Positions 15,870-38,730 are shown, counted from the first letter of the stretch. The stretch: DNA of 64,000 nt from Candidatus Rariloculaceae bacterium (GCA_965237785.1 OZ250159.1:1099656-1163655); one strand, 5' to 3'. The notes: a model not told the origin generated them from the letters alone. Numbers and translations are program-made.

Positions 15870-17051
15870 ATGAGAGAAGCAGTCATCGTTTCAACCGCGC
15901 GGACGCCGATCGGCAAAGCTTATCGCGGCGCCTTCAACAACACCGAAGCTCCGACGCTCGGCGGGCATGCGGTGCGGCACGCGATTGAGCGCGCGGAACT
16001 GGATCCATCCGAGGTCGATGACGTCATGATGGGTTGCGCCATGCCGCAGGGAACGCAGGGCTATAACGTCGGCCGGCAGATTGCGCTTGCGGCTGGCCTG
16101 CCCGTAACCACGGCCGGCATGACGATTGACCGGCAGTGCTCGTCCGGCATGATGGCTATAGCGCTGGCTGCAAAGACCGTTATCTGCGACAACGTCGATG
16201 TCGTGGTTGCCGGTGGCCTCGAATCAATCAGCCTGGTTCAGAACAAGCACGCCAATGTCTACCGTGCGACCGACCCCCGTTTGCTGGCAACGCACGAGCA
16301 TTTCTACATGCCCATGATCGATACGGCTGACGTTGTGGCCAATCGCTACGGCATCACTCGAGACAGTCAGGACGAGTATGCGTTGCAAAGTCAGCAGCGT
16401 ACCGCGGCCGGTCAGGCGAACGGCAAGTTCAACGATGAGATCGTGCCACTGCCATCGACCAAGGGCGTGATGGATCGGGAGACCGGGGAAATCGGTTTCG
16501 AGGCCGTGGTTCTGGAGAAGGATGAAGGCAATCGATCCGGAACCAGTCTGGAGGGCTTGTCGTCGCTCAATCCAGTCCGGGAAGACGGGTTCATAACGGC
16601 CGGAAACGCGAGTCAGTTATCGGACGGCGCATCCGCTTGTGTGGTCATGGAAGCGAGTATCGCCGAGCGTAAGGGCCTGCTCCCTCTGGGCATTTACCGC
16701 GGAACGGCGGTGGCCGGCTGCGAACCCGATGAGATGGGGATCGGACCGGTTTTCGCCGTACCGAAGCTGCTGGAGCGTAACGGCCTTAAGATGGACGATA
16801 TCGACCTGTGGGAGCTCAACGAAGCGTTCGCCGTGCAGGTGCTTTATTGCCGGGATACGCTCGGCATCCCAAACGACAGGTTGAACGTCGATGGCGGCGC
16901 CATTTCGATCGGACACCCCTATGGCATGTCCGGTGCGCGGATGGTCGGCCATGCGCTGATCGAGGGTAAGCGGCGTGGTGCGCGATACCTCGTATGCACC
17001 ATGTGTATCGGCGGTGGCCAGGGTGCTGCGTCACTGTTCGAAGTCGTGTAG
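15870..17051 (+). CDS. Acetyl-CoA C-acyltransferase (thiolase)
   Basis: [22 protein letters not shown], the active-site region DRQCSSGM, and the C-terminal CIGGGQGAA. Confidence 0.9.
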
Positions 17052-17062
17052 GGCAGGGGAAT

Positions 17063-17161
17063 ATGGCGATGCGCGCGGTGGTTTGCTCGGAGCTCGGGCC
17101 CGCCAGCAAACTGAAGTTAACGGATTTCCCCGAGCCCTGGGCAAGGTGGTTCTCAGGGTAG
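17063..17161 (+). pseudogene. Remnant of an MDR / NADPH:quinone oxidoreductase gene (first ~25 codons only)
   Basis: MAMRAVVCSELGPASKLKLTDFPEP is a typical MDR N-terminus. The expected continuation (KVVLRV) is in another frame, and the gene then ends. Confidence 0.45.
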
Positions 17162-17165
17162 GGGA

Positions 17166-17480
17166 GTGCTGATGGAGCTTGAGGGCAGGACCGTCGCCGT
17201 CACGGGTGCCGCCGGCGGTATTGGCGCAGCACTGTGTCGCGGGTTTCACGACGCCGGCGCCGCGGCGATCGCGGCACTCGACCTGGATCGACCCGGTGCT
17301 GAGGCGGTTACAGCACCTCTCTCCGGACTGGCGCTCGGTGTGGACGTCGGCAACGAGGGGGCGCTCATCATGATTCTGCCGCACGCCAGGGCGGGAGACT
17401 ATTTTCGCGGCAAGGCCGCCGACTACGAGCGTTGGATCGCCGGCATGCGCGGGTTGCGTCGCAAGGCCAGGCGAGCGTAG
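17166..17480 (+). pseudogene. SDR gene with a large in-frame internal deletion
   Basis: The N-terminal RTVAVTGAAGGIGAAL...VDVGNEGAL is joined directly to a C-terminal-type tail ILPHARAGDYFRGKAADYERWIAGMRGL. Total length is 104 aa against ~250-270 expected. The catalytic S/YxxxK region is absent. Confidence 0.55.
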
Positions 17481-17534
17481 TCCGCAGTTCTTGCAAAGCT
17501 GCGACCGTGGGCGCGTTCGGACAGCACTTGCGGT

Positions 17535-18281
17535 TCAGATCGTGCCGGTAAAGCTGAAAGCGCGCATGCCCGTTTCGTCCGGATCGCCAGTCAATATCTC
17601 CAGACCGCGCACCAGGGCGATGGGCGCGTCCGGGCGAGCGCGGGCCAGACCGCTTATATCGTAGTTGCCGTCAGCACCGAGGCTGGCGGACCCCCGTACC
17701 TGCAGCGGACCGCCCCGGTCCTCAAAAGCACCCCTGAGGTCAGCGGTACCGGAAAGCGAGACGTTGTAGCTGCCGAGCGCAACGGAATCGCCCACGCTGC
17801 CGGGAACCAGGGATGGCACGATGAGTTGGGCCAGGCGCACCTCTCCCGTGGCAGCGGTCAGCCGGCCGTTTTGCAGCACGACTTCGGTCAAATCGAAGCT
17901 GATCTGACCGCGGATACCGACGATGGGCAGAACGGCCGCAAGGGCTGAAAGGCTGCAACCGGCACGAAGCCCCGTAAGGACGATTTCTCCGGTCCCGACG
18001 CGAACATCGGCTTGCAGGAATCCATCGCCGAGGCCGGTCTCGATCCGCGCCCCCGGCCGCGCGAGCAGGATCGACCAGGGTTGGATCTGCCAACGGAGTT
18101 CCTGGAATCCGAGTTCGCCCGCGGAACCCAACTCGGCACGGCCCGACCACACCGTACCTTGTAACCCGGATAGACGAAGTTCGTCAGGCGCAAACCAGCG
18201 GTAGGCGGTGCCGGCCGGGAAGGACGCGATGGTGAACGCGATATAGGCGGCCACGCCCAGGCCTATCCACCTGGTCTGCAT
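17535..18281 (-). CDS. gspN: Type II secretion system protein N
   Basis: Last gene of the gsp operon. Single N-terminal TM helix, then ...LSGLQGTVWSGRAE...ELRWQIQPWSLL..., typical of GspN. Confidence 0.7.
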   Translation of the reverse strand: MQTRWIGLGVAAYIAFTIASFPAGTAYRWFAPDELRLSGLQGTVWSGRAELGSAGELGFQELRWQIQPWSILLARPGARIETGLGDGFLQADVRVGTGEIVLTGLRAGCSLSALAAVLPIVGIRGQISFDLTEVVLQNGRLTAATGEVRLAQLIVPSLVPGSVGDSVALGSYNVSLSGTADLRGAFEDRGGPLQVRGSASLGADGNYDISGLARARPDAPIALVRGLEILTGDPDETGMRAFSFTGTI

Positions 18282-24462: not shown

Positions 24463-25704
24463 ATGTCCAAGCGGCGAGTGGTCGTAACCGGTCTCGGCTT
24501 GATCGCCCCCACGGGCAACAACTGGAAGCGTGGTTGGGAAAACGTACGCGATGGCGTCAGCGGCATCGGTGTGATCGATTCTTTCGATACCACCGGGTTC
24601 GCCACCACCTTCGGCGGCGTCATCAAGGACTTCGATGTGACCGACTACATGTCGGTCAAGGACAGCCGCAAGGCCGATCGGTTCATGCACTACGGCATCG
24701 CGGCCTGCTCCGAGGCGTTCGAGGATGCCGGACTGGAGGTCGACGAATCGCAGGCTCATCGGTTCGGTGTGATCATGGGATCCGGCATCGGCGGGCTCAA
24801 CACCATCGAGCAGAACTATGGGCGATATCAGGCGGGGGGGGCGCGGCGAATTTCGCCGTTCTTCGTTCCCGGCAGCATCGTCAACATGATCTCCGGCCAT
24901 GTTTCCATCAAGTACGGCTTGACCGGCCTTAATCTGGCCCTGGTGACCGCCTGCGCGACCTCAGCTCATTGCATAGGCCTGGCGGGACGGCTCATAGGGA
25001 TCGGAGAAGCGGACGTCATCCTGGCGGGCGGCGCGGAGTACGCAACCACGCCGCTTGGAATCGGTGGATTCTGCGCGGCACGAGCGCTCTCCACACGGAA
25101 TGACGATCCGACCGGTGCCAGCCGACCCTGGGATCGGGATCGGGACGGTTTTGTCCTCAGCGACGGGGCGGGTTGCCTGGTGCTGGAAGACTACGAGCAC
25201 GCCACCCGGCGCGGGGCGCAAATCTACGGTGAACTGATCGGCTCCGCCATGAGCGGCGATGCGCATCACATTACCGCGCCGACTGAGGATGGGGCCGGCG
25301 CGGATCTGTGCATGCGCCTGGCTTTGAAAGATGCGCGCGTCAACCCCGAAGACGTGGACTACGTCAACGCGCATGGGACATCGACTCCCCTGGGCGATCT
25401 GTCGGAAACGCTGGCGATAAAGCGGACCTTCGGAGACTATGCGAAAAAACTGGTGATCAGTTCCACGAAATCCACCACCGGCCATACACTCGGCGCCGCC
25501 GGAGCGATCGAGGCGCTGTTTACCGTAATGGCCATACGGGATGGCGTAGTGCCGCCCACGATAAACCTGGAGAATCCCGATCCGGCGTGCGATCTGGACT
25601 ACACGCCAAACGTCGCCCGTGAACTGGATGTGCAAATCGCGCTGTCAAATTCCTTCGGCTTCGGCGGCACCAACGGCACCGTCGTCTTCAGGAAATTCAG
25701 CTGA
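24463..25704 (+). CDS. fabF: Beta-ketoacyl-ACP synthase II
   Basis: MSKRRVVVTGLG..., active-site ACATSAH, HGTSTPLGD, and the C-terminal SNSFGFGGTNGTVVF. Confidence 0.95.
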   Translation: MSKRRVVVTGLGLIAPTGNNWKRGWENVRDGVSGIGVIDSFDTTGFATTFGGVIKDFDVTDYMSVKDSRKADRFMHYGIAACSEAFEDAGLEVDESQAHRFGVIMGSGIGGLNTIEQNYGRYQAGGARRISPFFVPGSIVNMISGHVSIKYGLTGLNLALVTACATSAHCIGLAGRLIGIGEADVILAGGAEYATTPLGIGGFCAARALSTRNDDPTGASRPWDRDRDGFVLSDGAGCLVLEDYEHATRRGAQIYGELIGSAMSGDAHHITAPTEDGAGADLCMRLALKDARVNPEDVDYVNAHGTSTPLGDLSETLAIKRTFGDYAKKLVISSTKSTTGHTLGAAGAIEALFTVMAIRDGVVPPTINLENPDPACDLDYTPNVARELDVQIALSNSFGFGGTNGTVVFRKFS

Positions 25705-25705
25705 C

Positions 25706-25837
25706 CGAAATTCTGTTCGGATCTGGCCCGAAACGGACGCGAGCTACATCGACCGCACCTCCGGCGAGCGCCTGCACCGCACCGAGTGGCACCGGGCGGT
25801 TTCGTTCCAGCCGGGATTAATCGATATGCACGAGAAT
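25706..25837 (+). pseudogene. ssb (single-stranded DNA-binding protein) fragment, left arm of a palindrome
   Basis: Translation ...ETDASYIDRTSGERLHRTEWHRAVSFQPGLIDMHEN resembles the SSB OB-fold core (...TGER.EKTEWHRVV.F). It starts right after the fabF stop and has no start codon. Confidence 0.5.
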
Positions 25838-25838
25838 C

Positions 25839-26006
25839 ATTTTCAAGCATGCCAAGTAAGCGTGGCTGGAAACTGACCACCCGGTGCCACTCGGTCTTCT
25901 CGACCCGCTCGCCGGTGTTGCGGTCGACGAAGCTCTCGTCGGTGGCGATGGAGAGGTTCGCGATCCTTCCGCCGCTGGCCAGGTGGTTTACGGTTATGTC
26001 TGCACT
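25839..26006 (-). pseudogene. ssb fragment, right arm of the palindrome
   Basis: Translation ...ASGGRIANLSIATDESFVDRNTGERVEKTEWHRVVSFQPRLLGMLEN. It has no start codon and the N-terminal part is degenerate. Confidence 0.55.
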
Positions 26007-26138
26007 TTACCGCCTGAGACCGAATGAGACGACATAAACCGCCAATAATCATACATGTATAGCGATTATCCTTCAGTTTGGCCGACAATGACCGTCGGGA
26101 GATACCCTGGAATTTGATTTCTCGTGTTGACTATTTCG

Positions 26139-26166
26139 TTGACATTCTTTGTGTTTTGGCTATCAT
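26139..26166 (+). promoter_or_regulatory. Sigma70-like promoter of the integrase gene
   Basis: TTGACA (26139-26144), a 16-nt spacer, then TATCAT (26161-26166). The integrase ATG lies only 7 nt after the -10 element, so the transcript may be leaderless. Confidence 0.45.
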
Positions 26167-26173
26167 TTCGGCC

Positions 26174-27421
26174 ATGAATTTGCGCACGAAAAAACGAGTG
26201 GCCAAGGTTCGCCTCACGCTCACCAAACGCTCCGTCGAGTCCCTTGCGCCGTCCGCAGGACCCTGGATCGCCTGGGACGACAAGCTCACGGGCTTCGGCG
26301 TCAGGGTGCAACCCTCGGGCACCAAGTCCTTCCTGATCAACTACCGGGCGAACGGGGGTGGACGGTATTCTCCCAACCGCCGACTGGTCATTGGGCGCTT
26401 CGGGAGACTCACCGCCGCCGAGGCCCGCAGGACGGCCCAGTCGCTGTTGGGCCGGGTGGCGGCGGGAGAAGACCCCGCCGCGGAGCGGGCCGAAGCGAGA
26501 GGCCTCCCCACGCTGGGAGAAGCCTTCGAGGACTACATGGCCGTGAACCCGAACCGCTCGGCGAATACCAACAAGGTCTACCGGCAGAATCTCCGGGTGA
26601 ATCTCTCCGACTGGGTGAACCGGCCACTGAACGCCATTTCCCGCCGGGACGTGGAGGCGCGCTTTCATCGCATCACCGAAAGACACGGATGGGCGGGGGC
26701 GAACCAGACGAATTCAATGCTGCGATCCATCTACCGCCGCCCGTGCGTGGATCACGAGGGACTGAAAAACCCGGTGGAGTTGTGGCTGGCCGCGGGCGGA
26801 AAGTTTCACCCTCACAGGAGACGAAGAATCTCCTCTCCCGCCGAAGTGCTACCCCGGTGGTGCGCGGGGATCGAGGCGGTGCCGATGCCCGAACCGGTCA
26901 GGGACATTCTCTGGATCGGGGTGTACACCGGGATGCGATTGGGCGAGGTGAAGTCGCTCCGATGGGAGCGGGTGGATCTCGAGAAACGGATCCTGCGGGT
27001 GGAGGAGACCAAGACGGGCGAGGTGCTGGAGCTGCCGATCACGGACCAACTGGAGGCGGTGTTCAGTCGGCGCCTCGCCGAAGCCGAAGGTTCAGGCGAA
27101 CCGGTGACCGGCTGGCTGTTTGCTTCTGCCAAGAGCGCCTCGGGGCACCTGGAGGACCTGTTCAAGTTCTATGCGCCGATTGGCCGGGTCGCCGGCACGA
27201 AATTCTGGTTCCACGGGCTGAGGAACAGTTTCATCTCCGTTGCGGAGCGCGAACTCCTGCTGCCGAGATCGCTGGTCAAGCGGCTGGTGAATCATGCGCG
27301 CGGCAGCGACGTCACCGAGGGGTACGCGGCGGACTGGACGGTGGAGCAGTTGCGGGAACCGGCGCAGCGGGTCGCGGACCGGATCGACATCCTTCGCGGG
27401 CTGCCCGAACGTTCCAGATGA
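26174..27421 (+). CDS. int: Tyrosine-type site-specific integrase with DUF4102 arm-binding N-terminal domain
   Basis: The N-terminus LTKRSVESL...WDDKLTGFGVRVQPSGTKSFLINYR is the P4-like/DUF4102 pattern. The catalytic region has GMRLGEV, HGLRNSF and the terminal ...TEGYA tyrosine. Confidence 0.9.
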   Translation: MNLRTKKRVAKVRLTLTKRSVESLAPSAGPWIAWDDKLTGFGVRVQPSGTKSFLINYRANGGGRYSPNRRLVIGRFGRLTAAEARRTAQSLLGRVAAGEDPAAERAEARGLPTLGEAFEDYMAVNPNRSANTNKVYRQNLRVNLSDWVNRPLNAISRRDVEARFHRITERHGWAGANQTNSMLRSIYRRPCVDHEGLKNPVELWLAAGGKFHPHRRRRISSPAEVLPRWCAGIEAVPMPEPVRDILWIGVYTGMRLGEVKSLRWERVDLEKRILRVEETKTGEVLELPITDQLEAVFSRRLAEAEGSGEPVTGWLFASAKSASGHLEDLFKFYAPIGRVAGTKFWFHGLRNSFISVAERELLLPRSLVKRLVNHARGSDVTEGYAADWTVEQLREPAQRVADRIDILRGLPERSR

Positions 27422-27440
27422 CTTGAGCGGATTTCGCGGA

Positions 27441-27689
27441 TCAGACCAGCAGCAACCGCACCAGGATCGCAACGTTCAGCGCCGCCACCAAGCCGAGCAC
27501 CCACTTGATCGCGCCCAACTCGGCTCGCTGCGCGCCCATTTCCGTGCGCAGGGCGGCGATGTCGTCCTTCGTTGCAAGGTCGCCCTGACCGGCCCGAACG
27601 ATCCTTGCAACGGCCTCGGCCTGGGGCTGTTCGAAGCCGGCGGCCTGCAGCTCCTTCGCGGCGCTCAATGTATCGAATGCGGCAGCCAT
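27441..27689 (-). CDS. DUF1640-like small coiled-coil protein with C-terminal TM helix
   Basis: 82 aa. FDTLSAAKELQAAGFEQPQAEAVARIV...DLATKDDIAALRTEM...IKWVLGLVAALNVAILV matches my recollection of DUF1640. Confidence 0.55.
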   Translation of the reverse strand: MAAAFDTLSAAKELQAAGFEQPQAEAVARIVRAGQGDLATKDDIAALRTEMGAQRAELGAIKWVLGLVAALNVAILVRLLLV

Positions 27690-28235
27690 GCGGGAATTAT
27701 ACTCCCAATGCGATGGCGACGGGACGGGGATGTTGAGAGCAAAAAAGAACTGTCCGCCTTATAGCACAAGGGTTGTCCGGTCCCCTCGATCTTTATCTTG
27801 GTGAGAAAACTGGTTGCAGGTCCTGTGGATTTGGTGGGAGAAAGGCACGCGAGTGGTGTGTCGGGCGAACTGGGGGAGTATAGCCGGTGGCGGCCGAGAG
27901 TCGCCGGACGCTCAGACGAGCCGCTGCTGCCGATGCCCGTCCTGGGCGAGATCCAGGTACGCGGCCCGGATCAGCGCCCGAATGAGCTGGGATTGACTCG
28001 GCGGCGGCAAGCCGAACCGGGCGGTCTGGTTCGCCTTGTGCTCGAGAAGCCGGGGTTTCCCAAGATGCTCATGACGGCTGAAGCGCGCAGTCGGAATGCC
28101 TGGTTCCGGAAATTCCCCAACAACGCGGAAACGGTCCGAAAATGCTCGCGCAATTCGGTGCGCACCACGGCGATTCTCCGGAGAACCGCACCATAACCTG
28201 CTGAAATAAATGAACTAAGTTCGAACCAATTTTCG

Positions 28236-28260
28236 AGCGTATATGAAAATGATATACGCT
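28236..28260. repeat. Perfect 9-bp-stem hairpin
   Basis: agcgtatat-gaaaatg-atatacgct, an AT-rich hairpin in a region without convincing genes. Confidence 0.8.
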
Positions 28261-28330
28261 GTCACTGCCAGAGCATTCAGCTTTTCCCAAGGCTCCGGCA
28301 CCCGTTTTTGGCGGGCCGCAGGTGGCTCCA

Positions 28331-28360
28331 GCGTAGCCGAGCGTAGTCAGGCGTAGCCAA
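28331..28360. repeat. Three tandem 10-bp direct repeats
   Basis: gcgtagccga gcgtagtcag gcgtagccaa, with a period of exactly 10 bp. Confidence 0.85.
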
Positions 28361-28635
28361 CGGTATCTTCTGCCCTCTTGGGCACCGGGGTGCGGTCGGT
28401 GTGTAAGTCTTGACGTCCGCCAGGACGTTGACTGAAATGGCGTTTTCGACGAACCGCTGTTGACAGGCTCACGGGGGTATTCTGCAAGGCAAAGCCCAAG
28501 CGGCGCATGAGCGGGATCAGGTCGATGAGGATCTTGGGATTTTGCAGTTCCGCGACCGCATGAATGACAATCCTGGCATGGGCCTGGTGACATCACGGGA
28601 TGGCGATTTCAACGAATCCGCCAAGACGCAAATGG

Positions 28636-29290
28636 GCACAGGAGGTGCCGAATCGCCGAATACGGTCAGCGGGCCATTCGCACAAGGGCAACGGAAACGG
28701 CTCGATCAGCTTAGCATCGGGCGGGGTCGTTGAAGCCGCGGGGTCGATGTTCGCATTCGCAATTACGCGGCAGTCGACAGAAGAGCCGGTGCACAGGGTA
28801 TCGAGGCAATATCAGGGGCGGGGCGCTCGTAGGGTAACGGCTGCGTCGCGATCACGGGAGTTGACGCTGTAGAAGCGGCAGTGGCGTGCGCGGAAATTTG
28901 CGGCAAGGCCGTCGTGGAACAGGCGATTCGCCAGCGACGGTCACCGTGCGGGCATTCGATTGTCGCGGTGTGCATTCCCGGCGCGTGCGGCAGACGGTTG
29001 GTGTCAATCGACGGGTGACGCGGTGACAACAACGCTCAAGTCTCGGGAACCCAACGGGATACCTCGGACAAGGCGTATGCGCAGTTGACGATGCGGCGGC
29101 AAGGTCGATAATCGCTATCACGACCGTCATGAACCAGGCGACGTGCCAGACGGCGGTCCCCGTGCCGGCATTCGGTTATGGTGGTGCGTATTTTCCGGCC
29201 GGGCGAGAGTCTGTTGGCGTCAATCGGCGCGCGACGAATTGTGGACCGCTGCGAAGTTGGCGAATAGGGTAACCGGGCAAATGACAATTT
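28636..29290. repeat. Degenerate long direct repeats (~224-bp period)
   Basis: Two clear units, 28860-29083 and 29084-~29290, each begin with gttgacg. They share a core ccag.cg.cggtc.ccgtgc.ggcattcg...gttgg.gtcaatcg at about 70 percent identity by eye. A weaker third copy of the core lies at ~28664-28690, plus a related gcattcgcaattacgcgg at ~28752. Confidence 0.6.
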
Positions 29291-30635
29291 GCATTCAGGC
29301 TTGGCGCAGGTGGCCGAAAAGAGCGTGATTGGAGAGCTTGTGAGGCTGAGGGATCACGTTGTTGACTTAGCGCATTTCGCCGACGAGCGGATGTTCGCGG
29401 AGATGTCCGAGGGCATTCCCCTTATCGTCGAGAGCGCTGAGGAACTGGATGAAGCCGGCCGGCAGTTGTTTGAAGCCGGGGAGTTTCGCGCCAGCACGAT
29501 CATCAAAGGGCTCGCGGAGGAAGAGGCGGCGAAAGTGCTGATACTTCTGGACTCGGTGCGGTGCCCACCGGATCCCAAGTCGAAGAAGAAGTGCTTGAGG
29601 GGTTTCTACCAACACTTGGCGAAGCGCGTCTATTCAGCGGTGAACTCGCTCCCCAACATCTTGTCATTCGGCGAATTGTCCGAATTCGTAGAGTACGAGT
29701 GCGAAACGTTCTATCTGGATGGTCCCCGCGGCGTGGATTGGATTTTCACGAACGCTATCACTACCGAAAGGGAGAACAAGATGTACGTGGACTATGTCCG
29801 CGATATCACTGAGCCGAAAGGCAAGTACAATTGGAGCGTGCCACAGGTTCTCCCGCCGCTTGTCGGAACCTATCAACACCCCCCGGTCGTGCGTCTTGCT
29901 CGTGCCCTTTGTGATGCCGGAGCAAGTTCTGCGCCGGGGCTCGCGTGTATCGCGGGCCTGTGGCGAGGGTTTCGTCCAGAGAGTGGGACGAGTCGTGCAG
30001 ATCTGAGGTGCGTAATTGAACGGACGCTAGAACGCCTTGATAAAGAGCACATCGGTGCGATTAATCAGGTAGCAGCGAGTCTGATTCTCTCAGAATGGTC
30101 GTTCCCGTTGTGGCCGCTCAACTTGGTCAAGAGCAATTCCCGGGGCGGCTCTTTGGAGGAATTGCAGGCAAAGCGAAGGAGCGCCATCGAGCGGATTGAG
30201 AAGATCGAAGCGAGAAGGGAGCCGCGGCCAGCGATAACGCGTGTCAAGGTGGAGGCCATGAGCAACGCGCACGATGCCTGGCGGAAGGAGGTCGCGGAAC
30301 GAACAGCGACCAGAGACTCGAGCGCCGGCGAAAAGCTGAAGCCGAGGTCGTTGGCTGACTTGGCGGCGGAGCGGGACTTGCCCTCCTACATGAGAATGAA
30401 GGAGATGTTCGTGGAGCTGAGCGATCACGAGCGGACGGTGCTGTTGGCCTTAGCGTGGTTCACCCGCGACGCGGTTGCCGATTGGCCAAAGGCATATGCC
30501 AAAGCGACGGCCAGTTACCCCACGCTGGACCAGATGTATCAGCTCGGTCTGGGGCGGAATTGGTTGGCGGGACTAAACCGTTGGGAGGAATCACCATCGA
30601 GGTTCGAACTGGGACGGTGGCATAGTATTATCTGA
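29289..30635 (+). CDS. AbiV-like HEPN-domain protein with long uncharacterised C-terminal half
   Basis: The N-terminal part IVESAEELDEAGRQLFEAGEFRASTIIKGLAEEEAAKVLILLD resembles the AbiV/HEPN_AbiV helix pair. It is followed by an RX4H motif (LRGFYQH; R104, H109 in ORF numbering). The start is uncertain: TTG at 29289, or GTG at 29310 or 29325. Confidence 0.6.
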   Translation: MHSGLAQVAEKSVIGELVRLRDHVVDLAHFADERMFAEMSEGIPLIVESAEELDEAGRQLFEAGEFRASTIIKGLAEEEAAKVLILLDSVRCPPDPKSKKKCLRGFYQHLAKRVYSAVNSLPNILSFGELSEFVEYECETFYLDGPRGVDWIFTNAITTERENKMYVDYVRDITEPKGKYNWSVPQVLPPLVGTYQHPPVVRLARALCDAGASSAPGLACIAGLWRGFRPESGTSRADLRCVIERTLERLDKEHIGAINQVAASLILSEWSFPLWPLNLVKSNSRGGSLEELQAKRRSAIERIEKIEARREPRPAITRVKVEAMSNAHDAWRKEVAERTATRDSSAGEKLKPRSLADLAAERDLPSYMRMKEMFVELSDHERTVLLALAWFTRDAVADWPKAYAKATASYPTLDQMYQLGLGRNWLAGLNRWEESPSRFELGRWHSII

Positions 30636-30671
30636 ATTGGCGAGTGAGACTGTGCTGGGAAGGGGGCAACG

Positions 30672-31268
30672 GTGTCGAATCTCGACAAGCTGAAAAGATC
30701 GGCGCCGATTGCTTCGCAGGACTCGAAGAAATCGGCAAATGGCGGTCGACAGCGGATCGGTCCGGCGGGAACGCGGTTATCAGGCAGCGCGATACGCTCG
30801 GATTCAGCCGATGCTTCCTTTCGCCATCATTGGATCTTGTGGGCAGGGCCAGTTGCGATGCTGCTGGCGGCTTTGCTCCCGTGGCCGTATGGCTACTACA
30901 ACTTCCTCAGGTTTTGCGTCTGTGGGGCGGCGGCTTTTCTGGCGTATCAGCAATGGACTCATGACGATGCCGCAAGCAAGTGGGTCGTCGTGCTCGTCGC
31001 AATCGCGCTCTTGTACAACCCGTTTGTACCCGTTTATCTGACTCGCGAGATCTGGACCGTGCTGAACGTCGGCACGGCGATAGCCCTGGTTGGACACTAC
31101 CGCTCATTGCGGCGACTGCTCCGACAGACCGTCGAGAACTCACCGCAGATCGGGCGCACACTCTCGAGGCGGACGCCGGTCCGGGCAGGGAAGTCGCGCG
31201 CTTTCTCCCTGCTCTCAGCAGTCGGTAGGGGCATCCGCGTGTTCAAACAGCGCGACGGCGGAGGATGA
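30672..31268 (+). CDS. Membrane protein, DUF6804-like core
   Basis: A polar N-terminal ~55 aa is followed by TM helices with YYNFLRFCVCGAAAFLAY...VAIALLYNPFVPVYLTREIWTVLNV, the pattern I associate with DUF6804. GTG start 37 nt after the preceding gene. Confidence 0.5.
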   Translation: MSNLDKLKRSAPIASQDSKKSANGGRQRIGPAGTRLSGSAIRSDSADASFRHHWILWAGPVAMLLAALLPWPYGYYNFLRFCVCGAAAFLAYQQWTHDDAASKWVVVLVAIALLYNPFVPVYLTREIWTVLNVGTAIALVGHYRSLRRLLRQTVENSPQIGRTLSRRTPVRAGKSRAFSLLSAVGRGIRVFKQRDGGG

Positions 31269-32074
31269 GCGGCGCAGACGAAGTCCGTAGGCTGGCGCGT
31301 GAGGAGGCAGAACGTGGCGTTGCCGACGCGCAGGTCGCTCTCGGGGTGATGTACCTCACCGCGCAGGGGGTTGAGCGGGACGCGGAGAAGGCACTCTCTT
31401 GGCTCCTGAAGGCTGCGGATCAGTCCGACACCGATGCACTGTATAACTTGGGCATCGTATTTGACACCGGGTTCTTCGGAATGCGACCGCCAGACGCAAT
31501 TGAGGCGCTGAGTTGGTTCCGCCGGGCTGCGAGCCAAGGACATGATGGAGCCAAATACAACCTCGGTGTTGCCTACGCGGAGGGAAAGGGCGTGACTCCG
31601 GATCGTGCGCGAGCCATCGAGTGGTGGCGGGAGGCTGCGGAAGCGGGCAATGCTCGTGCTCAGTACAACCTCGGTGTGAGCTACAGCAACGGCGAAGGGG
31701 TTGCCCGCGACGACGTGCAAGCCGTGGCGTGGTGGGAGAAGGCCGCGATGCCGCCCAACCCTGCCGCGAAACCTGAAAAAGCATACTACTCGGCGCCTAG
31801 TGGAATAATCGTCAGGAAGGGGCTCGGCGACGCTGGACGGGGGGAGCACGGCTATGCCGATGCCCAGTACCACTTGGCCCGCATGTATGCATTGGGCCAA
31901 GGGGTGGACCGCGACAACGCGCGATCGGCAGAATGGCTGCGGCGCGCGGCTGAACAGGGACATAGTGGTGCACGGCCTGCGCTATCAGGTAGATTCTGGC
32001 GGCGCGCTCTTTTGGCGGGGGGAGTTGTCTTGGTTACCGTGCTAATCCTGACGGTCTTCGTGGCGGCCAATTGA
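31265..32074 (+). CDS. Sel1-repeat (SLR) protein with C-terminal TM anchor
   Basis: About five Sel1 repeats (AQVALGVMY..G.GV.RD...A..W..KAA..G...A.YNLG). The C-terminal helix is ALLAGGVVLVTVLILTVFVAA. Its start overlaps the previous stop (ATGA). Confidence 0.8.
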   Translation: MSGADEVRRLAREEAERGVADAQVALGVMYLTAQGVERDAEKALSWLLKAADQSDTDALYNLGIVFDTGFFGMRPPDAIEALSWFRRAASQGHDGAKYNLGVAYAEGKGVTPDRARAIEWWREAAEAGNARAQYNLGVSYSNGEGVARDDVQAVAWWEKAAMPPNPAAKPEKAYYSAPSGIIVRKGLGDAGRGEHGYADAQYHLARMYALGQGVDRDNARSAEWLRRAAEQGHSGARPALSGRFWRRALLAGGVVLVTVLILTVFVAAN

Positions 32075-32272
32075 GTGTTGTAACCGATCGGATGCATCCT
32101 GTTGTTGGGTTTGGTATGCAAAGCGCCAGGAAGCGCTGGATGACGAAGTACAAGGCCGAGTGCTCAATTGTGCTTACCAGCGCGGTCATTCGCGGGAGAG
32201 TGCGCTGGATGTCGTGGGCGTTGAACTATGTGACAACGCGCTGACGAGATTACAGCGCTTGCATGAATTGCC

Positions 32273-32449
32273 ATGATCGACTGGTTGATTTCTGTTCTCT
32301 CCACCATCTGGGAATGGAGAATGCTGTTGCCGTTTGAGGGCTGGCGCGCTATCTATGGGATGTGGTTCTTTTTGTTGCTCTTGGCTCTTTTCGTCGGTGT
32401 TCCCGTCTGGGCTCTCATCTCGATCAGGCGTTTTTTCAGGTCGCGCTGA
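32273..32449 (+). CDS. Small hydrophobic protein (58 aa)
   Basis: MIDWLISVLSTIWEW...GMWFFLLLLALFVGVPVWALISIRRFF. Its ATG overlaps the stop of an upstream open frame (ATGA). It lies in a lower-GC segment. Not in the ORF track because it is under 60 aa. Confidence 0.3.
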   Translation: MIDWLISVLSTIWEWRMLLPFEGWRAIYGMWFFLLLLALFVGVPVWALISIRRFFRSR

Positions 32450-32492
32450 TCTGCCAACTTAGGTATGTAATCCCAATTTGAAAAGAAATCGG

Positions 32493-33026
32493 ATGAACAA
32501 GCTGCTAATCGGAATTACCACTCTGGCCGCGCCGATCATGGTTGGATGTCAGGATGCGGAGAACTCAGACCATGTTGCGATACTTTTGCGAACTTTCGAC
32601 GCGGTATGTATCAGCACGCGTCTTGACGAAAGTATCTTTCACGCCCAAATGAGCTTGTTCGGCGACACCATGGAGGTGCCAGCGGATGAGCTACGTATGA
32701 TGTCCCCAACCAACATTGCAGGCTATTACTTGACAGACGTTGAAGGGCAGACTTTTGTCGCGGTGATGGGGCTGACACAAGCCGACGACATATCGTCGAG
32801 AAATTGCGGGGTCTTGACACGATCCGTTGGATTCGAGGAAGCAGTAGCGCTGGTTGCAGAAAATTTCCCGGTTGAGAAGTTGGATGAATTTAGCCAAGGA
32901 ATCAGTCGCTATGTGACTTTCCAAGGGTACTTGGCAGGATACCCTGACAACATGGCCATTTCGGTACAGGGCGGCGAGCGAGTCACGGGCGTCTATCTAT
33001 ACGAGTTACCCTCAGCTGGGCGATGA
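32493..33026 (+). CDS. Lipoprotein, unknown function
   Basis: Signal peptide with lipobox MNKLLIGITTLAAPIMVG/C. Lower GC than the surroundings. Confidence 0.55.
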   Translation: MNKLLIGITTLAAPIMVGCQDAENSDHVAILLRTFDAVCISTRLDESIFHAQMSLFGDTMEVPADELRMMSPTNIAGYYLTDVEGQTFVAVMGLTQADDISSRNCGVLTRSVGFEEAVALVAENFPVEKLDEFSQGISRYVTFQGYLAGYPDNMAISVQGGERVTGVYLYELPSAGR

Positions 33027-33380
33027 CGCATTGGACTCAATTTGAATTGCTTTGTTGATAACGCTGGCTGCAGTCTTCGCTATTGCGAAAAGATGCGCGC
33101 CGGCGAGGCGGGGAACCGGGCGTGCTCCAATACCGTCGATGCTCAAACAAGTTGCCGGCCAGAGGCAGCTATTTTCCGCCCTGATCGGCTGGCTGGCAGG
33201 GGTTTCGCAAAGATTGTTTGGCCGTAGGCTTCCGAGTTTCGGTTTTGTGTAGATTTGCGTTGGTTGACGCTCACCTACCGTGGTACGCAGTGAATCTCGC
33301 ACGACTTGCGCCCTTCCGCGGAACCATGCGCGGCAATGACGGTACCGGCGTCGCCCTGAAGCGCTTGAAGGGAAATTGGC

Positions 33381-33908
33381 GTGGCAGTGCTCATCGAAGG
33401 GCTTTCTGTGGTGATTCGCATCGATGCGATAAAGGCCAGGTATCCCGGTGGGTGGGAGGCGTTTGCCGCGAACGCGCCCAAGGCCAATTGTTGCTGGAAC
33501 GGGGAACTCGCCCGCGTGGGCTTCATGGCGCCATGGGACACGAAGGCTTTTGTCCAGTCCCTCGAGAGCCTTGGATTGATCCACCTGGTCGACGGGATGG
33601 CGCGCGACATGGTGGTGGTGGATCAGTTTTAGGGTCCGGCGACGCCGTGCGACTGGGTTGAAGGCGGGCACGTGGACCTGGAAGACGACCCAGAGCGCCG
33701 GGTGCTGGCTGTCCGTCTCAAGGGCAGCAGGCAGCAACTGGTGTACACGCCCGATGAGTGGACGTTCGAAAGGTCCCTGTCGCGCTCGTTCGGCTTCGCG
33801 CCCGAGGAACACGTGGACAGGAGCCTGACGTTCGTGCGTCACGAGAACGGTCTGGACGTCTACCTGAACGCGGTCACGAGCACCGAGGTCTGCGTTGGGG
33901 GCTTATAG
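33381..33908 (+). pseudogene. Conserved hypothetical gene interrupted by an in-frame TAG
   Basis: ORFs 33381..33632 and 33672..33908 are in the same frame and are separated only by the TAG at 33630-33632 (...MVVVDQF*GPATPCDWVEGGHVDLEDDP...). The sequence reads as one continuous protein. Confidence 0.5.
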
Positions 33909-33925
33909 CGGATAATGACCAAACA

Positions 33926-34278
33926 TCAGTCCGAATCGTCCGCCGACGCCTTTATCAACGGCGCGGGGTCGTAATGTTCCGCCAGCTTGCGGGCTAGCGC
34001 AACGATCAGAGCCCTTGCCGCGTCGTCGTCTCGAATCACGGAGAACACCGCCCAATTCAGGATGAGTATCCAGCCCGTCTCACGACTGGTGGCGATCAGT
34101 CGGTTGAGATCGTCCTCGTCGAGCCTTTCATCAGCTCTTTCTTCTTCAGGTTTTTCCACTGTTTGCGTTTTTTGGGGGTGTGCCAAGGACGGCACGCGCG
34201 ATGTTCTCCGGTGTGTCTGGGATGGGTTCCGCCATCCGTTTCTCGATGGGGGCCGCCTCTGTGTTTCGGCTGACTCAT
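33926..34278 (-). pseudogene. Frameshifted small gene(s) of unknown function
   Basis: ATG at 34278 (MSQPKHRGG). The protein-like continuations IEKRMAEPIPDTPENIARAVLGTPPK and ...LDEDDLNRLIATSRETGWILILNWAVF... lie in the two other frames. The frame changes coincide with homopolymer runs. Confidence 0.3.
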
Positions 34279-34327
34279 GCCCGTACTCTACCCATGTCGA
34301 GTGAATCAGTCTGACTCGATTCTATGA

Positions 34328-34352
34328 CCCGCCGCTGCTACGGCGGGTTTTT
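34328..34352 (+). terminator. Rho-independent terminator-like hairpin
   Basis: cccgccg-ctgcta-cggcggg followed by ttttt on the + strand. It sits between two minus-strand genes, so which transcript it ends is unclear. Confidence 0.45.
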
Positions 34353-34579
34353 CATTTCAAATTACGATAAGTCGGGCTTGGGATCACCCCATCGTCAACG
34401 GCGGTCTGGCGGTCAACCTGCCTGTCCTCTTCCTGAGTCTCCAGCACGTCGGCAATCCGCTTCAGGCTGATGGCGATGGAAGCCAGGCATTCGTCACGGG
34501 ATGGAAAACGGTTGTTCCGACGGCGAAATTCCTCTCCCGCCGCATCAATGTCTTCAAACAGCTTCGCGTTTCGTGCCAT
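34352..34579 (-). CDS. Small hypothetical protein (75 aa)
   Basis: ATG with an AGGGA ribosome-binding site ~9 nt upstream. Acidic, helical-looking sequence. No family recognised. Confidence 0.35.
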   Translation of the reverse strand: MARNAKLFEDIDAAGEEFRRRNNRFPSRDECLASIAISLKRIADVLETQEEDRQVDRQTAVDDGVIPSPTYRNLK

Positions 34580-34620
34580 AGGTCGGTCCCTGTCAAATCC
34601 TCATACTTCAATCGCTTGTG

Positions 34621-34850
34621 TTACATCCTCGGCACCATGTCGCCCATCTGTTCGATGGTATCCAGATCGCGGGCGTTGTGACCGCCCGCGAACTCGCGCA
34701 CATACCGATGGAGGTGTTTCTCGCTCATCGTGTGGTACGTACCCTTGTGACCCCGCTTCAGGAGTTACCAGAACGATTCTATCCCATTCGTGTGAGCCAT
34801 CCCAATGACGTACTCGCAGGCTGAGCGTGCTAGCGCTATCTGATGGCGCG
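34621..34850 (-). mobile_element. IS1595-family (ISXO2-like) transposase C-terminal remnant with internal stop
   Basis: Translation ...SACEYVIGMAHTNGIESFW*LLKRGHKGTYHTMSEKHLHRYVREFAGGHNARDLDTIEQM. HTNGIESFW..LKRG..G.YH..S.KHL.RY..EF is the DDE_Tnp_IS1595 C-terminal signature. The N-terminal two thirds are absent. Confidence 0.6.
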
Positions 34851-34928
34851 ATGCTCACGTTGTTTGATGGATTTTGGGTGGCGTCCTTGGCGACGGGCGG
34901 CGAAATGTCGGATGAACGTCGCCGTAAC

Positions 34929-35508
34929 TCATCTGATAATGCGTGGATTGACGTTCAGCCGTTCCAAGTACTCGTCGAACTCAGACCGATCTCGAGCCTC
35001 CAAGCACCGTTCCAGCATCGGCGCGTCGTCAGGACCCACCTCAAAGCCGACGCCCTCAAGCGGCTCTCCGAACACCTCCAGCCATCGTTCTTGAATGGGC
35101 CGCAAGGCGGAAAAATCGGTAATTGAATCGTCTCCAGCAGGTCCATGACTTCGCGATACAAGTCGGGAAAAAGCCGCTCGACCATTTGGGCGGCGATCTC
35201 GCTCTCGCCCGATATGCCGACCACATTAGCAAACATTCCGTCTCTCGGCTGCCCGGAGTCTTGTAGTACGCCTTGGAGTGTCCAACCGAACCATGGGTGC
35301 GGCTCATGGTGGCGCCATCGGCCAGATCGGACAGCAGGAACCCGTATTGGCTCCGGGCGCGGGGCGGGGGCGCGGACAGTGCCGTCGACGGGGAGTTGCC
35401 CTGACGAACGATGCTCAAGGCCGCTGTAGGGCGATATTGCGAGACCGCAAGGCTGCGATAGGAGTCATTTTCAGCCGATTTCGGCGATTTAGGGGAATGG
35501 CGGGGCAT
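34929..35508 (-). pseudogene. Frameshifted gene of unknown function downstream of the relaxase
   Basis: Three successive protein-like segments lie in three different frames: ...YGFLLSDLADGATMSRTHGSVGHSKAYY..., then MFANVVGISGESEIAAQMVERLFPDLYREVMDLLE, then ITDFSALRPIQERWLEVFGEPLEGVGFEVGPDDAPMLERCLEARDRSEFDEYLERLNVNPRIIR*. Confidence 0.3.
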
Positions 35509-35550
35509 CCCGGCGTCGACCTTCGGATTCCCTTGTCCGGCCCCGGATCC

Positions 35551-38500
35551 TCACATTTCCATGTCGAGATCCATGTCCATCTCGACCGGCTCGTTGGCCC
35601 GGTCGTTCTCGGCAACGGGCGCGGGCGACTTCGGGGCGGGGTCCGGGCTGGCCTTGCCCGCACTGGCCTCGCGTACCGTCCCGGGCTCGGCCTGTTTGAC
35701 AGTTTCAAGCTCCGCGCCCCACTCGGCGACTTGGCGGTCCGGCTTGCGCTCAAGCTGCGCGCCGCGGCCCGGCGAGGGTTCGATCTCCTCCCGGGCGTAG
35801 CGCCCGGCGGCCTGCGCCACCTTCGCCGGGTCCTTGGCGTCCCCCGCGTCCCTGAAAATGGCCTTCACCGCGGCGGTGTCCGCCGCCGCGTCCAGCGCCG
35901 ATATTCTCTCGCCGCTGGCGCGCTCAAGGTGATCGGAGAGCTTTCGCCCGTCGTCGGTGATCAGCTCCGCCCGGAATCGCGCCCGGCTGATGGCCACATA
36001 AAGGGCCTTCTGGTTGACCAGCGCCCGGTTCCCCGACTCCATCGCCGCGATGATCGTGTCCACGGTGCGGCCCTGGAAGGAATGGATCGTGGTGGCCCAG
36101 GCATGGTCAAGGAACCGCAAGCTCGGGTGTCCTTCCCCCAGCGTGATGGTTGGCCCGTCCTCGAGTTCGAATCGCACCTCGTCTTCCTCGATCCCCGCGA
36201 CGCGGGCCATCTGACCGTTGACCAGTCCCGCGTCCCGGTCGTTCCGGGTGAACCGCACCCGGTCGCCGGCACGCAGGTCCAGGCGGCCTGAGCGGTACGA
36301 GTCCACGCCGCCCTTCTTGCCCGCGATCTCCCAGGGCCGCCACCGCACCTTGGCGCCTTTCGAACCCTCAAGAATCACTGCGTGACGGTCCCGGTCGATT
36401 CCAGCGACGGTTCTCTCGTCGCCTTTCTCGACCCCCAGCCGCTTGTACTTGCGGTTGAAGATCACCGTGTCGCCTTCCGCGTAGCTCGAATGCAGCCCAG
36501 CCTCCGCGCAAGTGAGGCCGCGGGAAAGGAGTTTCGTACCCGTGCGCGCCGGGCCGTGGATTTCGCCTTCGGCGGCAAGTTCGTTTCGGATGATACGATT
36601 GATCGAGTCGCGCAGCGCCCGGGTGGGCGCGATGACACCGGTATTGTCCCTATCTGAGTGAGACAGCGCCAGCCACCGCTGCGCGGCTTCGTCCGCGAGT
36701 TTTTCAGACGCGATTTCCGTGACGTTGTCCCCGAGCTTCTTGAACGCCGCCTTGATTTCCCCCTCAAGCGTGGACTTCACCGCGGACTTCAGTCTTGAAT
36801 CTTTCTGCCTGAGTATTTCGTCCAGCACGGCGGTCTGCATCCCCGCCTTCATCAACTGCCCGAAGGGCCTGCCGGCATCCACCCCGTCAAGCTGCTTCTC
36901 GTCCCCGACCAGCACCACCCTTGGCAACCGCATGGCCGTGGCGGCCTTGAGCAGGCCCCTCATTTGTTCGGTTGAGGCCAGCGACGCCTCGTCCACCACC
37001 ACCACGGTCTTACTCACCTTGCGCCGCAGCCCCTTCAGTCCCTTTGCGGAAACTCGCCCCTCGATCAGTCCGGTGTTTCGGGCTAGGAAGCGCTGCAGGG
37101 TTTCGGTCGGGATACCGGCTTCCTCCCGCAGCGTTTTGGCAGCAGATGCAGACGGGGCCAGCCCCTTCAGCCTGTAACCCTTGCGTTGGGAGAGATCCCG
37201 GAAGCGTTTCAGCATCGTGGTCTTTCCGGTGCCGGCGTAACCTTGGATGCCGATCACCCGATCCCTGCCGGAAAGCACCGACTTGACCGCCTCCTTCTGG
37301 CCGCGGTTCAATCGCCCCTTGCGAAGGCTGCTCTCGGCGACCCAGTTCCTCATCATCCTCGGACCCTTGCCCCGGCCCGCGCGCATCAGGGATATTGTCT
37401 CCGATTCCCTGGCAAGTGCTCTATCGGTCGTCCAGCCGCTGGCGCGGTGCATACCGTTGGCACGGTGCAAACCGCCCTTCCGTTCAAGGTCCAGAATGGC
37501 TTTCTCGGCCGATTCCACCGTGACGGCGCCGGGCTCTTTCCCCAGCACCGCCGTCAGCAGCGCCGCATGAGTGAACACCGACTGGCGCTCGCTCAGGTGC
37601 TTCACGGCCCATTGGGCGGCCTGTGTGGCCGAGTAGTCCGGATTGGCGAAGAGATCCTGCTGAGAGAGGGCGTCGCCTGTCTTCGCCACTGATCGGCGGG
37701 TCCGGGAAACCACCGCCTTGGCCGAAAAATCCAGTTCGCTCGCCTGCCGCGACCACTGCCGGCGCAGGGCGGACTTGTCCACGTCACGTTTGTGCGCGCG
37801 CGTCACCAGCGCGGCGCGGTCGGCCAGTCGGGCGTTGTCTCCGGGAGCACCCATGCCGCGCGCCTTCATCGCCGCCTCGATCTCGGCCCGTCTCGTGGAG
37901 AACGCCTTGATGACCTCGCGCGAGACCCCCTCGATCTCGAACCGCCCGTCCGCGTGGGTTTTCTCGATCCCGTACCCGAGCCCTTCAAGCCCCCGCGCCA
38001 GTTCCGAGCGGTAGATCGCCCCGATGGCGATCACGCCCCGGTACACCCGGTCGTTGATCATCGTTCTCCACTTGGAATCGTTTCCCTGAACCATGTTGAC
38101 GATCACCGCATGGGTGTGAAGCTGCGGGTCCAGATTCCGGGACGTGTCATGCCTAAAGGTGGCCGCCACCATCTTCTGGTTGCCCTTGCGCACCATCGTC
38201 CGGGTGACGGGATCCATGACGCGGGTCTCGACGGCGCGGTGCTCGATCCAGTCGAGCGTGCGCTTCACGGCGCGCGCGTGGGCCTTGACGATCCGGCGGT
38301 CCCCGCCCACCAGCGCGGCCAGAGAAACCGACTTCGGCGCGGACAGCGTGACGTCGATGCCCGGGCGGTGACGGATCGTGCCGTCGCGCTCCCGTTTCCC
38401 CAGCCTTCGCCCGTCCGGAACATGGCCTTCCAGCACCATCTGAAACGCTTCTGGCTCCACCGGTCCGGAGAGACCCATCGCTTCGGCGCCCTTGCCGCGC

Positions 38501-38619
38501 CAAGCGCTGGCCTCGCGGTGCAGGGCGTCGTCCTTGGCATAGTAGCCGTCTTTCTCGTAATAGCTGACGCCCTGGGCGGCGGAAGCGACTGTGCCGATGG
38601 AAGCTACCACGGATTGCAC
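35551..38619 (-). CDS. MobF-family conjugative relaxase (TrwC/TraI-like) fused to RecD-like helicase
   Basis: N-terminal YYEKDGYYAKDD...GKGAEAMGL and the histidine triad FRHDTSRNLDPQLHTHAVIVN mark the TrwC relaxase domain. It is followed by the AAA_30 Walker A GIQGYAGTGKTT and the helicase C-terminal motif TIHSFQGRTVD. Confidence 0.9.
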   Translation of the reverse strand: MQSVVASIGTVASAAQGVSYYEKDGYYAKDDALHREASAWRGKGAEAMGLSGPVEPEAFQMVLEGHVPDGRRLGKRERDGTIRHRPGIDVTLSAPKSVSLAALVGGDRRIVKAHARAVKRTLDWIEHRAVETRVMDPVTRTMVRKGNQKMVAATFRHDTSRNLDPQLHTHAVIVNMVQGNDSKWRTMINDRVYRGVIAIGAIYRSELARGLEGLGYGIEKTHADGRFEIEGVSREVIKAFSTRRAEIEAAMKARGMGAPGDNARLADRAALVTRAHKRDVDKSALRRQWSRQASELDFSAKAVVSRTRRSVAKTGDALSQQDLFANPDYSATQAAQWAVKHLSERQSVFTHAALLTAVLGKEPGAVTVESAEKAILDLERKGGLHRANGMHRASGWTTDRALARESETISLMRAGRGKGPRMMRNWVAESSLRKGRLNRGQKEAVKSVLSGRDRVIGIQGYAGTGKTTMLKRFRDLSQRKGYRLKGLAPSASAAKTLREEAGIPTETLQRFLARNTGLIEGRVSAKGLKGLRRKVSKTVVVVDEASLASTEQMRGLLKAATAMRLPRVVLVGDEKQLDGVDAGRPFGQLMKAGMQTAVLDEILRQKDSRLKSAVKSTLEGEIKAAFKKLGDNVTEIASEKLADEAAQRWLALSHSDRDNTGVIAPTRALRDSINRIIRNELAAEGEIHGPARTGTKLLSRGLTCAEAGLHSSYAEGDTVIFNRKYKRLGVEKGDERTVAGIDRDRHAVILEGSKGAKVRWRPWEIAGKKGGVDSYRSGRLDLRAGDRVRFTRNDRDAGLVNGQMARVAGIEEDEVRFELEDGPTITLGEGHPSLRFLDHAWATTIHSFQGRTVDTIIAAMESGNRALVNQKALYVAISRARFRAELITDDGRKLSDHLERASGERISALDAAADTAAVKAIFRDAGDAKDPAKVAQAAGRYAREEIEPSPGRGAQLERKPDRQVAEWGAELETVKQAEPGTVREASAGKASPDPAPKSPAPVAENDRANEPVEMDMDLDMEM

Positions 38620-38730
38620 TCTGCAAAGGGGCCGCCCGCGGCCACGCCGCCGTACCGGTCACCGGGATTGCTGCCCGCAGACGTATTGCCGCCCGCAATG
38701 GCCACTGCCGGGGTTCAATCCCGGTCCGTA

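Follow-up and report, generated by a model that had tools for sequence, protein, structure and literature searches.

What brought two broken pieces of ssb together, as an inverted repeat, in the gap behind fabF? They lie in a 64,000-nucleotide stretch of DNA from a Candidatus Rariloculaceae bacterium (GCA_965237785.1 OZ250159.1:1099656-1163655), here called the window, in which an earlier note had described a protein-coding palindrome at the edge of an island. A repeat finder bore out the inverted repeat, with arms of 105 nt at 25733–25837 and 25839–25943 that are 72% complementary around a 1-nt spacer, and base-by-base comparison gave the same symmetry about position 25838, without indels, over ~108–117 nt each way. 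In the 93-nt frame of the first reading the count of 66 matching bases out of 93 was reproduced, as were, exactly, both translations and the positions of the Trp codons. Within that frame the arms are identical in 19 of 31 amino acids, and mismatches at codon positions 1, 2 and 3 number 8, 7 and 12, so that third-position bias is not strong. The repeat is not due to chance: folded as single-stranded DNA, 25725–25950 reaches −71.8 kcal/mol against −43.2±3.4 kcal/mol for shuffled sequences (z=−8.5), and none of 200 shuffles folds as well. The palindrome had also been supposed to be unstable; at 72% arm identity, serious instability is not expected.

Both arms derive from ssb, as had been proposed. 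The right arm matches the Pfam SSB family (PF00436; E 1.7e-6; score 28.5 bits, cut-off 26; profile positions 13–57 of 104) and residues 18–61 of Escherichia coli SSB (E 1.6e-11). The left arm has no Pfam match, even when its continuation at the far end of the island is added to give the reconstructed target peptide, and it aligns with E. coli SSB at E 0.004 and with the full-length SSB of locus L123, a closer relative, at E 3.4e-10 (tblastn). Both are pieces of the N-terminal OB fold that break off at the same codon. Neither is a complete gene, with a start codon, the entire OB fold and an acidic C-terminus; full-length relatives end in ...IPF. The right arm is preceded by a stop codon, is without ssb codons 1–14 and without a start, and has as its 3′ end the attP-type sequence GAA AAT G ATT CTC. 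No second ssb gene was found in the window. Two details of the first description need changing. The fragments were called head to head; there are indeed two of them, but their frames converge and the truncated 3′ ends meet at the centre, which is a tail-to-tail arrangement. Similarly, the left arm does lie beside fabF, but not immediately after its stop codon (25702–25704), since homology to ssb starts ~28 nt past it.

The palindrome stands at one end of inserted DNA (Table 1). The closest genome, a Ca. Rariloculaceae metagenome-assembled genome (MAG; L002) from a gammaproteobacterium, has a FabF to which that of the window is 83% identical, and in it fabF is followed after 185 bp by mltG-tmk-holB. 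In the window the gap between fabF and mltG measures 14.6 kb, and these 14.6 kb have therefore been inserted. Ssb fragments beside fabF were found in none of 80 related genomes. Within the insertion lies an integrase gene whose product carries both an arm-binding N-terminal and a catalytic domain, each above the Pfam cut-off, and R...HxxR...H...Y-like motifs read by eye (TGMRLGE, HGLRNSF, VNHARG, EGY); alternative starts are at 26078 and 26114, and the ENA gene call is 435 aa long. A TrwC-type relaxase gene lies towards the other end. Pfam scans and precomputed gene calls returned no type IV secretion (T4SS), mating-pore or coupling-protein (T4CP) families among the island ORFs. No tRNA or tmRNA was found in the window, nor any known RNA family over 24–41 kb. 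The island thus has its own integrase and relaxase, no pore or coupling-protein genes, and an insertion point that is unoccupied at the syntenic site of L002, which is the make-up of an integrative mobilizable element (IME). The association of both arms with mobile DNA, part of the original proposal, is borne out.

Table 1. Features of the fabF–mltG region, in window coordinates.
Feature	Position	Strand	Remarks
fabF	24463–25704	+	ketoacyl-synt Pfam families; last chromosomal gene before the insertion region
Left arm	25733–25836	+	ssb codons ~35–68; decayed; 5′ half (B) of the target ssb remnant
CGAGAA, integrase-side junction J_L	25831–25836	+	same hexamer at 39136–39141; the palindrome centre, 25838, is the next base but one
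Right arm	25839–26003	−	ssb codons ~15–68; integrase-proximal (P) arm of the island
Fossil site 1 junction	25983–26003	−	GCA GAC ATA ACC GTA AAC CAC; in register with the core of related arms
Conserved integrase-upstream region	26103–26173	+	80–81% identical in L084–L091
P4-type tyrosine integrase	26174–27421	+	Arm-DNA-bind_3 PF13356 1e-16; Phage_integrase PF00589 8.6e-16
Cargo: AbiV-like HEPN protein, DUF6804, Sel1-repeat protein	29289–32074	+	Pfam
TrwC-type (MOBF) relaxase-helicase	35551–38610	−	Pfam TrwC 1.5e-82, AAA_30 4.9e-52; 1019 aa
Relaxase-proximal (P′) arm	38611–39135	−	80% identical to L163 over 669 nt
J_R: CGAGAA (39136–39141), then B′ (GCACGCTCGCAAGGGC)	39136–39157	+	from 39134 reads I-E-K-H-A-R-K-G
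GST N-domain fragment	39266–39391	−	Pfam GST_N_2 2.1e-9; profile positions 27–69 of 70 only
parE toxin and parD antitoxin	39405–40102	−	ParE_toxin 1e-13, ParD_antitoxin 1.8e-10; outside the island, between the remnant and mltG
mltG (YceG)	40285–41322	+	68% identical to the L002 gene after fabF; chromosomal synteny resumes

The region has some further features. A 448-aa island protein (29289–30635, plus strand) matches AbiV/HEPN below the threshold (E 2.4e-5; 25 bits, cut-off 27.1) and may be anti-phage cargo. The GST fragment belongs to a 103-aa ORF (39122–39433, minus strand) that extends into the island junction and has only the C-terminal part of the GST N-domain; next to the ssb remnant and parDE, it resembles the leftover of a gene broken in some earlier event. 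A 391-kb ENA metagenome contig carrying the same region has an extra insertion of ~3.7 kb inside the island (L001 17000–20671, opposite window ~31277–31361), which encodes an rve transposase and an AAA_22 ATPase, is IS21-like in appearance and constitutes a polymorphism between two assemblies that are 99.8% identical. Between the same two sequences, 31 of 34 base differences over 16.8 kb are gathered at window 16672–17649, adjoining a type II secretion cluster; such bunching may mark either a tract exchanged by recombination or a hypervariable segment.

The far end of the island completes the ssb reading of the left arm. The left-arm frame resumes at 39142–39157, 13.3 kb off, with EKHARKG, and the junction there, ATC GAG AAG CAC GCT CGC AAG GGC, corresponds to ssb codons ~66–75 on the plus strand. 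A scan for the core pattern had led to 39137; that pattern is not significant in itself (22 matches against 13 expected), but its surroundings are: the peptide pattern E[KRN]H[AS][KRT]KG has its sole match in six frames of the window at J_R, where strand and end are both as predicted. Direct repeats flanking the island are limited to chance 11-mers, and what the two junctions share is the hexamer CGAGAA. When the outer flanks are joined, one continuous ssb reading results, with ...LIDMHE contributed by the left and KHARKG by the right. The reconstructed attB, ...FQPGLIDMHEKHARKG, is thus a single ssb frame, as are the joined flanks around the shared hexamer, ...LIDMHEKHARKG, and the longer form of the join, ...WHRAVSFQPGLIDMHEKHARKG..., which is continuous ssb. 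Joining the inner flanks gives an attP, ...CTT GGC ATG CTT GAAAAT G ATTCTC GATCCTGACCAATAAATC.... The joint at the palindrome itself (25832–25844) reads GAGAAT-C-ATTTTC on the plus strand and GAAAAT-G-ATTCTC on the minus strand.

By these sequence comparisons the island is the ~13.3 kb at ~25838–39141, with the right arm inside it and the left arm outside. An island boundary had rightly been placed at the palindrome, although its exact position is the palindrome centre and not the fabF stop codon. We put at roughly 70% the probability that the palindrome is the integrase-side attachment junction of this ~13.3-kb IME (~25838–39141), inserted backwards into an older ssb remnant. The evidence for this model is comparative throughout and drawn to a large extent from short metagenome contigs.

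A chimeric fold-back join made during assembly would produce a palindrome without any such history. The sequence does come from metagenome assemblies, and the contig of a relative, L083, stops no more than two codons from the centre. Artefactual fold-backs, however, are near-perfect, and the arm identity here is no higher than 72%. Chromosomal synteny is preserved to either side, and the two junctions agree with each other to the base. Moreover, the same sequence is present in the 391-kb ENA contig, which does not differ from the window at the palindrome or at the far junction, though at 99.8% overall identity the two are not independent witnesses of the palindrome. The exact 1019-aa relaxase is encoded on the ENA contig, and an identical relaxase is recorded on a contig of 4.39 Mb; exact-protein look-ups gave no record of the 415-aa integrase or of a 1022-aa version of the relaxase. 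We regard an assembly artefact as barely credible.

Relatives of the integrase point to ssb as the target. From metagenomes, 80 loci with integrase relatives (50–82% identity) were fetched, and ssb or fragments of it lie directly upstream of the integrase gene in 10 of the 80. A full or nearly full ssb stands on the opposite strand next to the integrase gene in L123 and L094; in L083 ssb runs from codon 15 up to the contig end; L084 and L088 have the 3′ part of ssb on the opposite strand; and in L091, L092 and L098 a 5′ part of ssb reads toward the integrase gene. Homology to ssb starts at codon ~14–15 in the right arm of the window and in L083, and at codon ~8 in L094. At the loci with long flanks, the ssb targets adjoin genes for DUF7146-Toprim and strawberry-notch helicase proteins, a neighbourhood that we take to be typical of conjugative elements. 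A tRNA or tmRNA gene, considered as an alternative target, was rejected: the 60 related loci that were scanned contain none, like the window.

Within ssb, breaks fall at two internal sites in the relatives of the integrase and the relaxase. Site 1 comprises codons ~15–21 (GAC GTC ACC GTC AAC CAC) and site 2 codons ~64–70 (GAC ATG CTN GAG AAN CAC). The closest relatives, L084–L091 (74–75% identity), have in common an integrase-proximal arm ending in ...ATC GAC ATA ATC GAG AAT, which, when read outward from the integrase gene, mimics ssb codons 63–70. Beyond GAGAA, L084 and L088 continue into the 3′ part of ssb in the sense orientation (GAG AAG CAC GCC ACG AAG GGA). L091 continues instead into an inverted 5′ half of ssb through the joint GAGAAT-G-ATTCTC, which is of the same kind as that of the window, and the arrangement in L092 is analogous. 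The integrase-side arms of L084, L088, L091, L085 and L086 all diverge after GAGAA(T). Independent copies, namely these five and the relaxase relative L163, therefore end at the same nucleotides with different flanks, which is the behaviour of attL and attR junctions. The flanks in L085/L090, L086/L089 and L087 are not ssb, and specificity for ssb is therefore not absolute.

The joint in L091 bears on whether the palindrome could have formed in place. Its two sides are plainly unrelated apart from the mimic of ~18 nt (a full ssb 5′ half against 18 nt); it was therefore made by joining two molecules and not by fold-back copying. The earlier note had offered an old inverted duplication as one origin for the palindrome, in which a single ssb segment folds back in situ and the copies then diverge neutrally to 72% identity. 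Exact symmetry, the lack of indels, a centre of 1 nt and the distribution of mismatches over codon positions (8/7/12) all suit that origin, as does the fact that the arms are marginally each other's closest relatives. Against it, the centre is the GAGAAT-C/G-ATTCTC joint that recurs in L091 between unrelated sides, a crossover core seen in independent relatives of the integrase and relaxase. L083 (integrase 82% identical) has the right arm linked to its integrase gene: arm and gene are collinear with the window at 77% identity over 25864–26400, and ssb runs past the centre (...MLERHA) to the contig end. The frame of the left arm is picked up again at the opposite end of the island, and the right arm resembles L091 and L092, its nearest relatives at 75–76%, more than it does the left arm. 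In-situ duplication was probably not the origin of the palindrome, and we give a fold-back event followed by neutral divergence very little chance. Nor is the other origin that had been suggested, recombination between two inverted ssb copies, favoured. Homologous recombination between full copies would give an inversion and two hybrid full-length genes, whereas both fragments here are truncated at the same codon.

The left arm could have a longer history without any change to its junction. It would then be the ssb-carrying arm of an earlier, mostly deleted IME of the same family, itself inserted in ssb, which the present IME entered backwards; accretion of this kind is known behaviour of IMEs (PMC5704250). 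The nearest relative of the left arm is the right arm, and the two share the rare TTA codon for the same Leu as well as a Ser where other ssb sequences have Thr. The margin of identity is small, however (70.3% to the right arm against 68.5% to L092 and no more to the others, a difference of 1.8 points over 111 nt of decayed sequence), and the two Ser codons come from different families (TCG and AGT). The left arm is also far from every other ssb sequence compared (63–69%), as expected of a decayed pseudogene. We consider accretion unlikely as the source of the left arm, and with it, too, the palindrome would still be a site-specific junction.

An independent test of the junction model was provided by the relaxase, relatives of which were collected and their contigs fetched. 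In L163 (relaxase 89% identical) similarity to the P′ arm stops at approximately the predicted junction. The P′ arm is joined there to ssb codons 1–69, with their own start, in the sense orientation: CTC GAG AAT GAT TCT ACA TCC TGC CCA A. The counterpart in the window is GCGTGC TTCTCG ATCCTGACCAA, and the partner of the P′ arm in the window and the ssb 5′ part of L163 have opposite orientations. The L163 and window junctions together therefore indicate that attP carries (C)GAGAA-TGA-TTCTCG, that is, two inverted copies of the block, and that each element was crossed in a different copy. The core of the window element is TGAAAA-TGA-TTCTCG, its counterpart in L163 CGAGAA-TGA-TTCTAC. An attP with two inverted copies of GAGAA explains why relatives are found in ssb in both orientations; among the loci examined, none shows a single element with its two ends in sense. 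The P′ arm has no match in the integrase-derived loci. When the attP-junction pattern was searched for, L163 was its only match among the fetched loci. Four unrelated matches on viral contigs (L168–L171, IMG/VR; TCAAGAATGATTCTTGATCCTGGCCAA) are an identical phage stretch without ssb, integrase or relaxase nearby, and were set aside as chance.

The relaxase relatives also bring in site 1. In L165, L166 and L167 (relaxase 81–82% identical) ssb codons 1–~20 lie ~0.6–1 kb upstream of the relaxase gene and break at D-(I/V)-T-V-N, which is site 1; in L164 an IS element lies upstream, and there is no ssb. In the window it is at site 1 (26003), codon ~15, that the ssb homology of the right arm begins, and the stretch at this point resembles a cross between the arm core GACATAA.. 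and ssb ..ACCGTCAACCAC.

The identity of the catalyst has to be considered. R388 TrwC can catalyse oriT-specific recombination as well as integration into oriT-like targets. The relaxase of the island could in the same way have made the junctions, with CGAGAA-TGA-TTCTCG serving as a hairpin-plus-nic site for oriT-like recombination or integration, and the core is indeed a small palindrome ~0.5 kb upstream of the relaxase gene. But the junctions are 170–340 bp away from the integrase gene, and arm sequences change in step with the integrase clades. At either end, moreover, the exchange has the appearance of a reciprocal, conservative one over a short block of identity, as is typical of tyrosine recombinases. 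The relaxase is in our view a highly improbable catalyst. The block of identity is only 5–6 bp, and both the cleavage positions and the tyrosine integrase as catalyst are inferred.

The proposed mechanism is as follows. The integrase would exchange strands within the 5–6-bp GAGAA block. Because attP would hold two inverted copies of this block 3 bp apart, a target GAGAA could pair with either of them, and pairing with one or the other would allow the element to enter in either orientation. In the window element the sense copy is degenerate (TGAAAA, matching the target CGAGAA at 4 of 6 positions) and the inverted copy matches at 6 of 6, which would therefore account for the backwards insertion. 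An ancestor residing at ssb site 1, as in L083, is envisaged to have excised through site 2, probably capturing codons ~15–68. The resulting element would then have inserted backwards into site 2 of the ssb remnant between fabF and mltG. Backwards insertion of an ssb-carrying arm into an ssb remnant places two ssb 5′ fragments end to end, and this is the palindrome. The target would have been ~41 ssb codons beside the GST fragment and parDE, presumably debris of an older element. The model predicts that an empty fabF–mltG site should hold a ...GATATGCACGAGAAGCACGCTCGC... remnant and should read ...TTAATCGATATGCACGAGAAGCACGCTCGCAAGGGC..., and that the circle junction should read ...GGCATGCTTGAAAATGATTCTCGATCCTGACCAATAAATC.... 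The palindrome is a by-product and not a functional device.

Several known systems resemble this element in part. Firmicutes IMEs integrate site-specifically into conserved genes of ICEs or into oriT, for example into traG and the SNF2-helicase genes of Tn5252-superfamily ICEs (PMC5704250). The window element is like them in being small, in having its own tyrosine integrase and relaxase and no mating pore, in lying inside a gene of other mobile elements and, perhaps, in entering att remnants of decayed elements (accretion). Unlike them, it is found in uncultured Gammaproteobacteria, has a P4-type integrase and a TrwC/MOBF relaxase, and belongs to a family that targets ssb at two internal sites and in both orientations and that has captured a piece of its target. 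The literature searched gave no description of ssb as an integration target or attachment site, which is not proof of absence.

Islands with P4-type integrases (Arm-DNA-bind_3/DUF4102 plus Phage_integrase) classically sit at tRNA or tmRNA genes. The domain architecture of the integrase and the position of its gene directly beside one att junction are shared with these islands, whereas the lack of a tRNA in the window and 60 related loci, the protein-coding target and the 5–6-bp identity block are not. Some elements bring with them a new end for the gene that they enter, an example being SXT/R391 at the 5′ end of prfC. Here, too, an arm holds part of the target gene and junctions read as a hybrid gene, but the ssb piece in the window is without codons 1–14 or a start and is joined backwards, so that nothing is restored. 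The captured piece looks like a by-product of excision via a second site and not a repair device. Engineered lox and FRT sites with symmetric spacers recombine in either orientation. The attP core put forward here, CGAGAA-TGA-TTCTCG, is likewise symmetric apart from its central base, and both orientations are observed; in contrast to the engineered sites it is a natural att site, in which orientation may depend on the better-matching half-copy. Finally, among helper-embedded satellites an integrase clade repeatedly targets prophage late genes (PMC10111431). The preference of an integrase clade for genes of other mobile elements is common to both cases. Those satellites, however, are phage-related and co-oriented with the target gene, whereas the window element is conjugation-related and insensitive to orientation.

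What began as an odd-looking sequence becomes an annotated structure, an island with ends placed at the level of the base, a defined target and a proposed core site. Should the model be true, ssb would be added to the few mobile-element genes that serve IMEs as landing pads, a natural tyrosine-recombinase site would work in both orientations, and there would be an example of how excision through a similar site close by lets an element acquire part of its target gene. In MAGs, inverted coding repeats next to an integrase gene are better considered first as att junctions, and only afterwards as duplications or assembly errors. A wider proposition, which we offer tentatively and at less than even odds, is that in uncultured marine Gammaproteobacteria one clade of P4-type integrases uses an attP core with two inverted copies of its crossover block, is blind to orientation, specifically parasitizes the ssb of conjugative elements at two internal sites and captures target sequence by site-switching excision, coding palindromes being a recurrent diagnostic by-product.

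The integrase relatives show some other arrangements. In L085 (~1100–1140) and L090 the arm passes into GAG AAT CAT ATC CGC AGG GTG... (ENHIRRVNSV) and then into a parD-like gene; ENHIRRVNSV may be what is left of a heavily decayed ssb 3′ part, or else another target. The ssb remnant of the window likewise has a parD/parE pair beside it. In L086 (676–688) and L089 (1945–1957) the arm is joined to non-ssb DNA via CAGAAT-C-ATTCTC, which may be a secondary-site insertion or part of attP. The ssb fragments of L098 (3778–3894) and L126 (125–247) are broken at codons ~31 and ~42, neither of which is site 1 or site 2, and these breaks may represent deletions or further sites. L099, L137, L138, L150, L153–L155, L106 and L159 each contain two full or partial integrase 5′ regions within a few kb, which suggests tandem or nested elements of the family.
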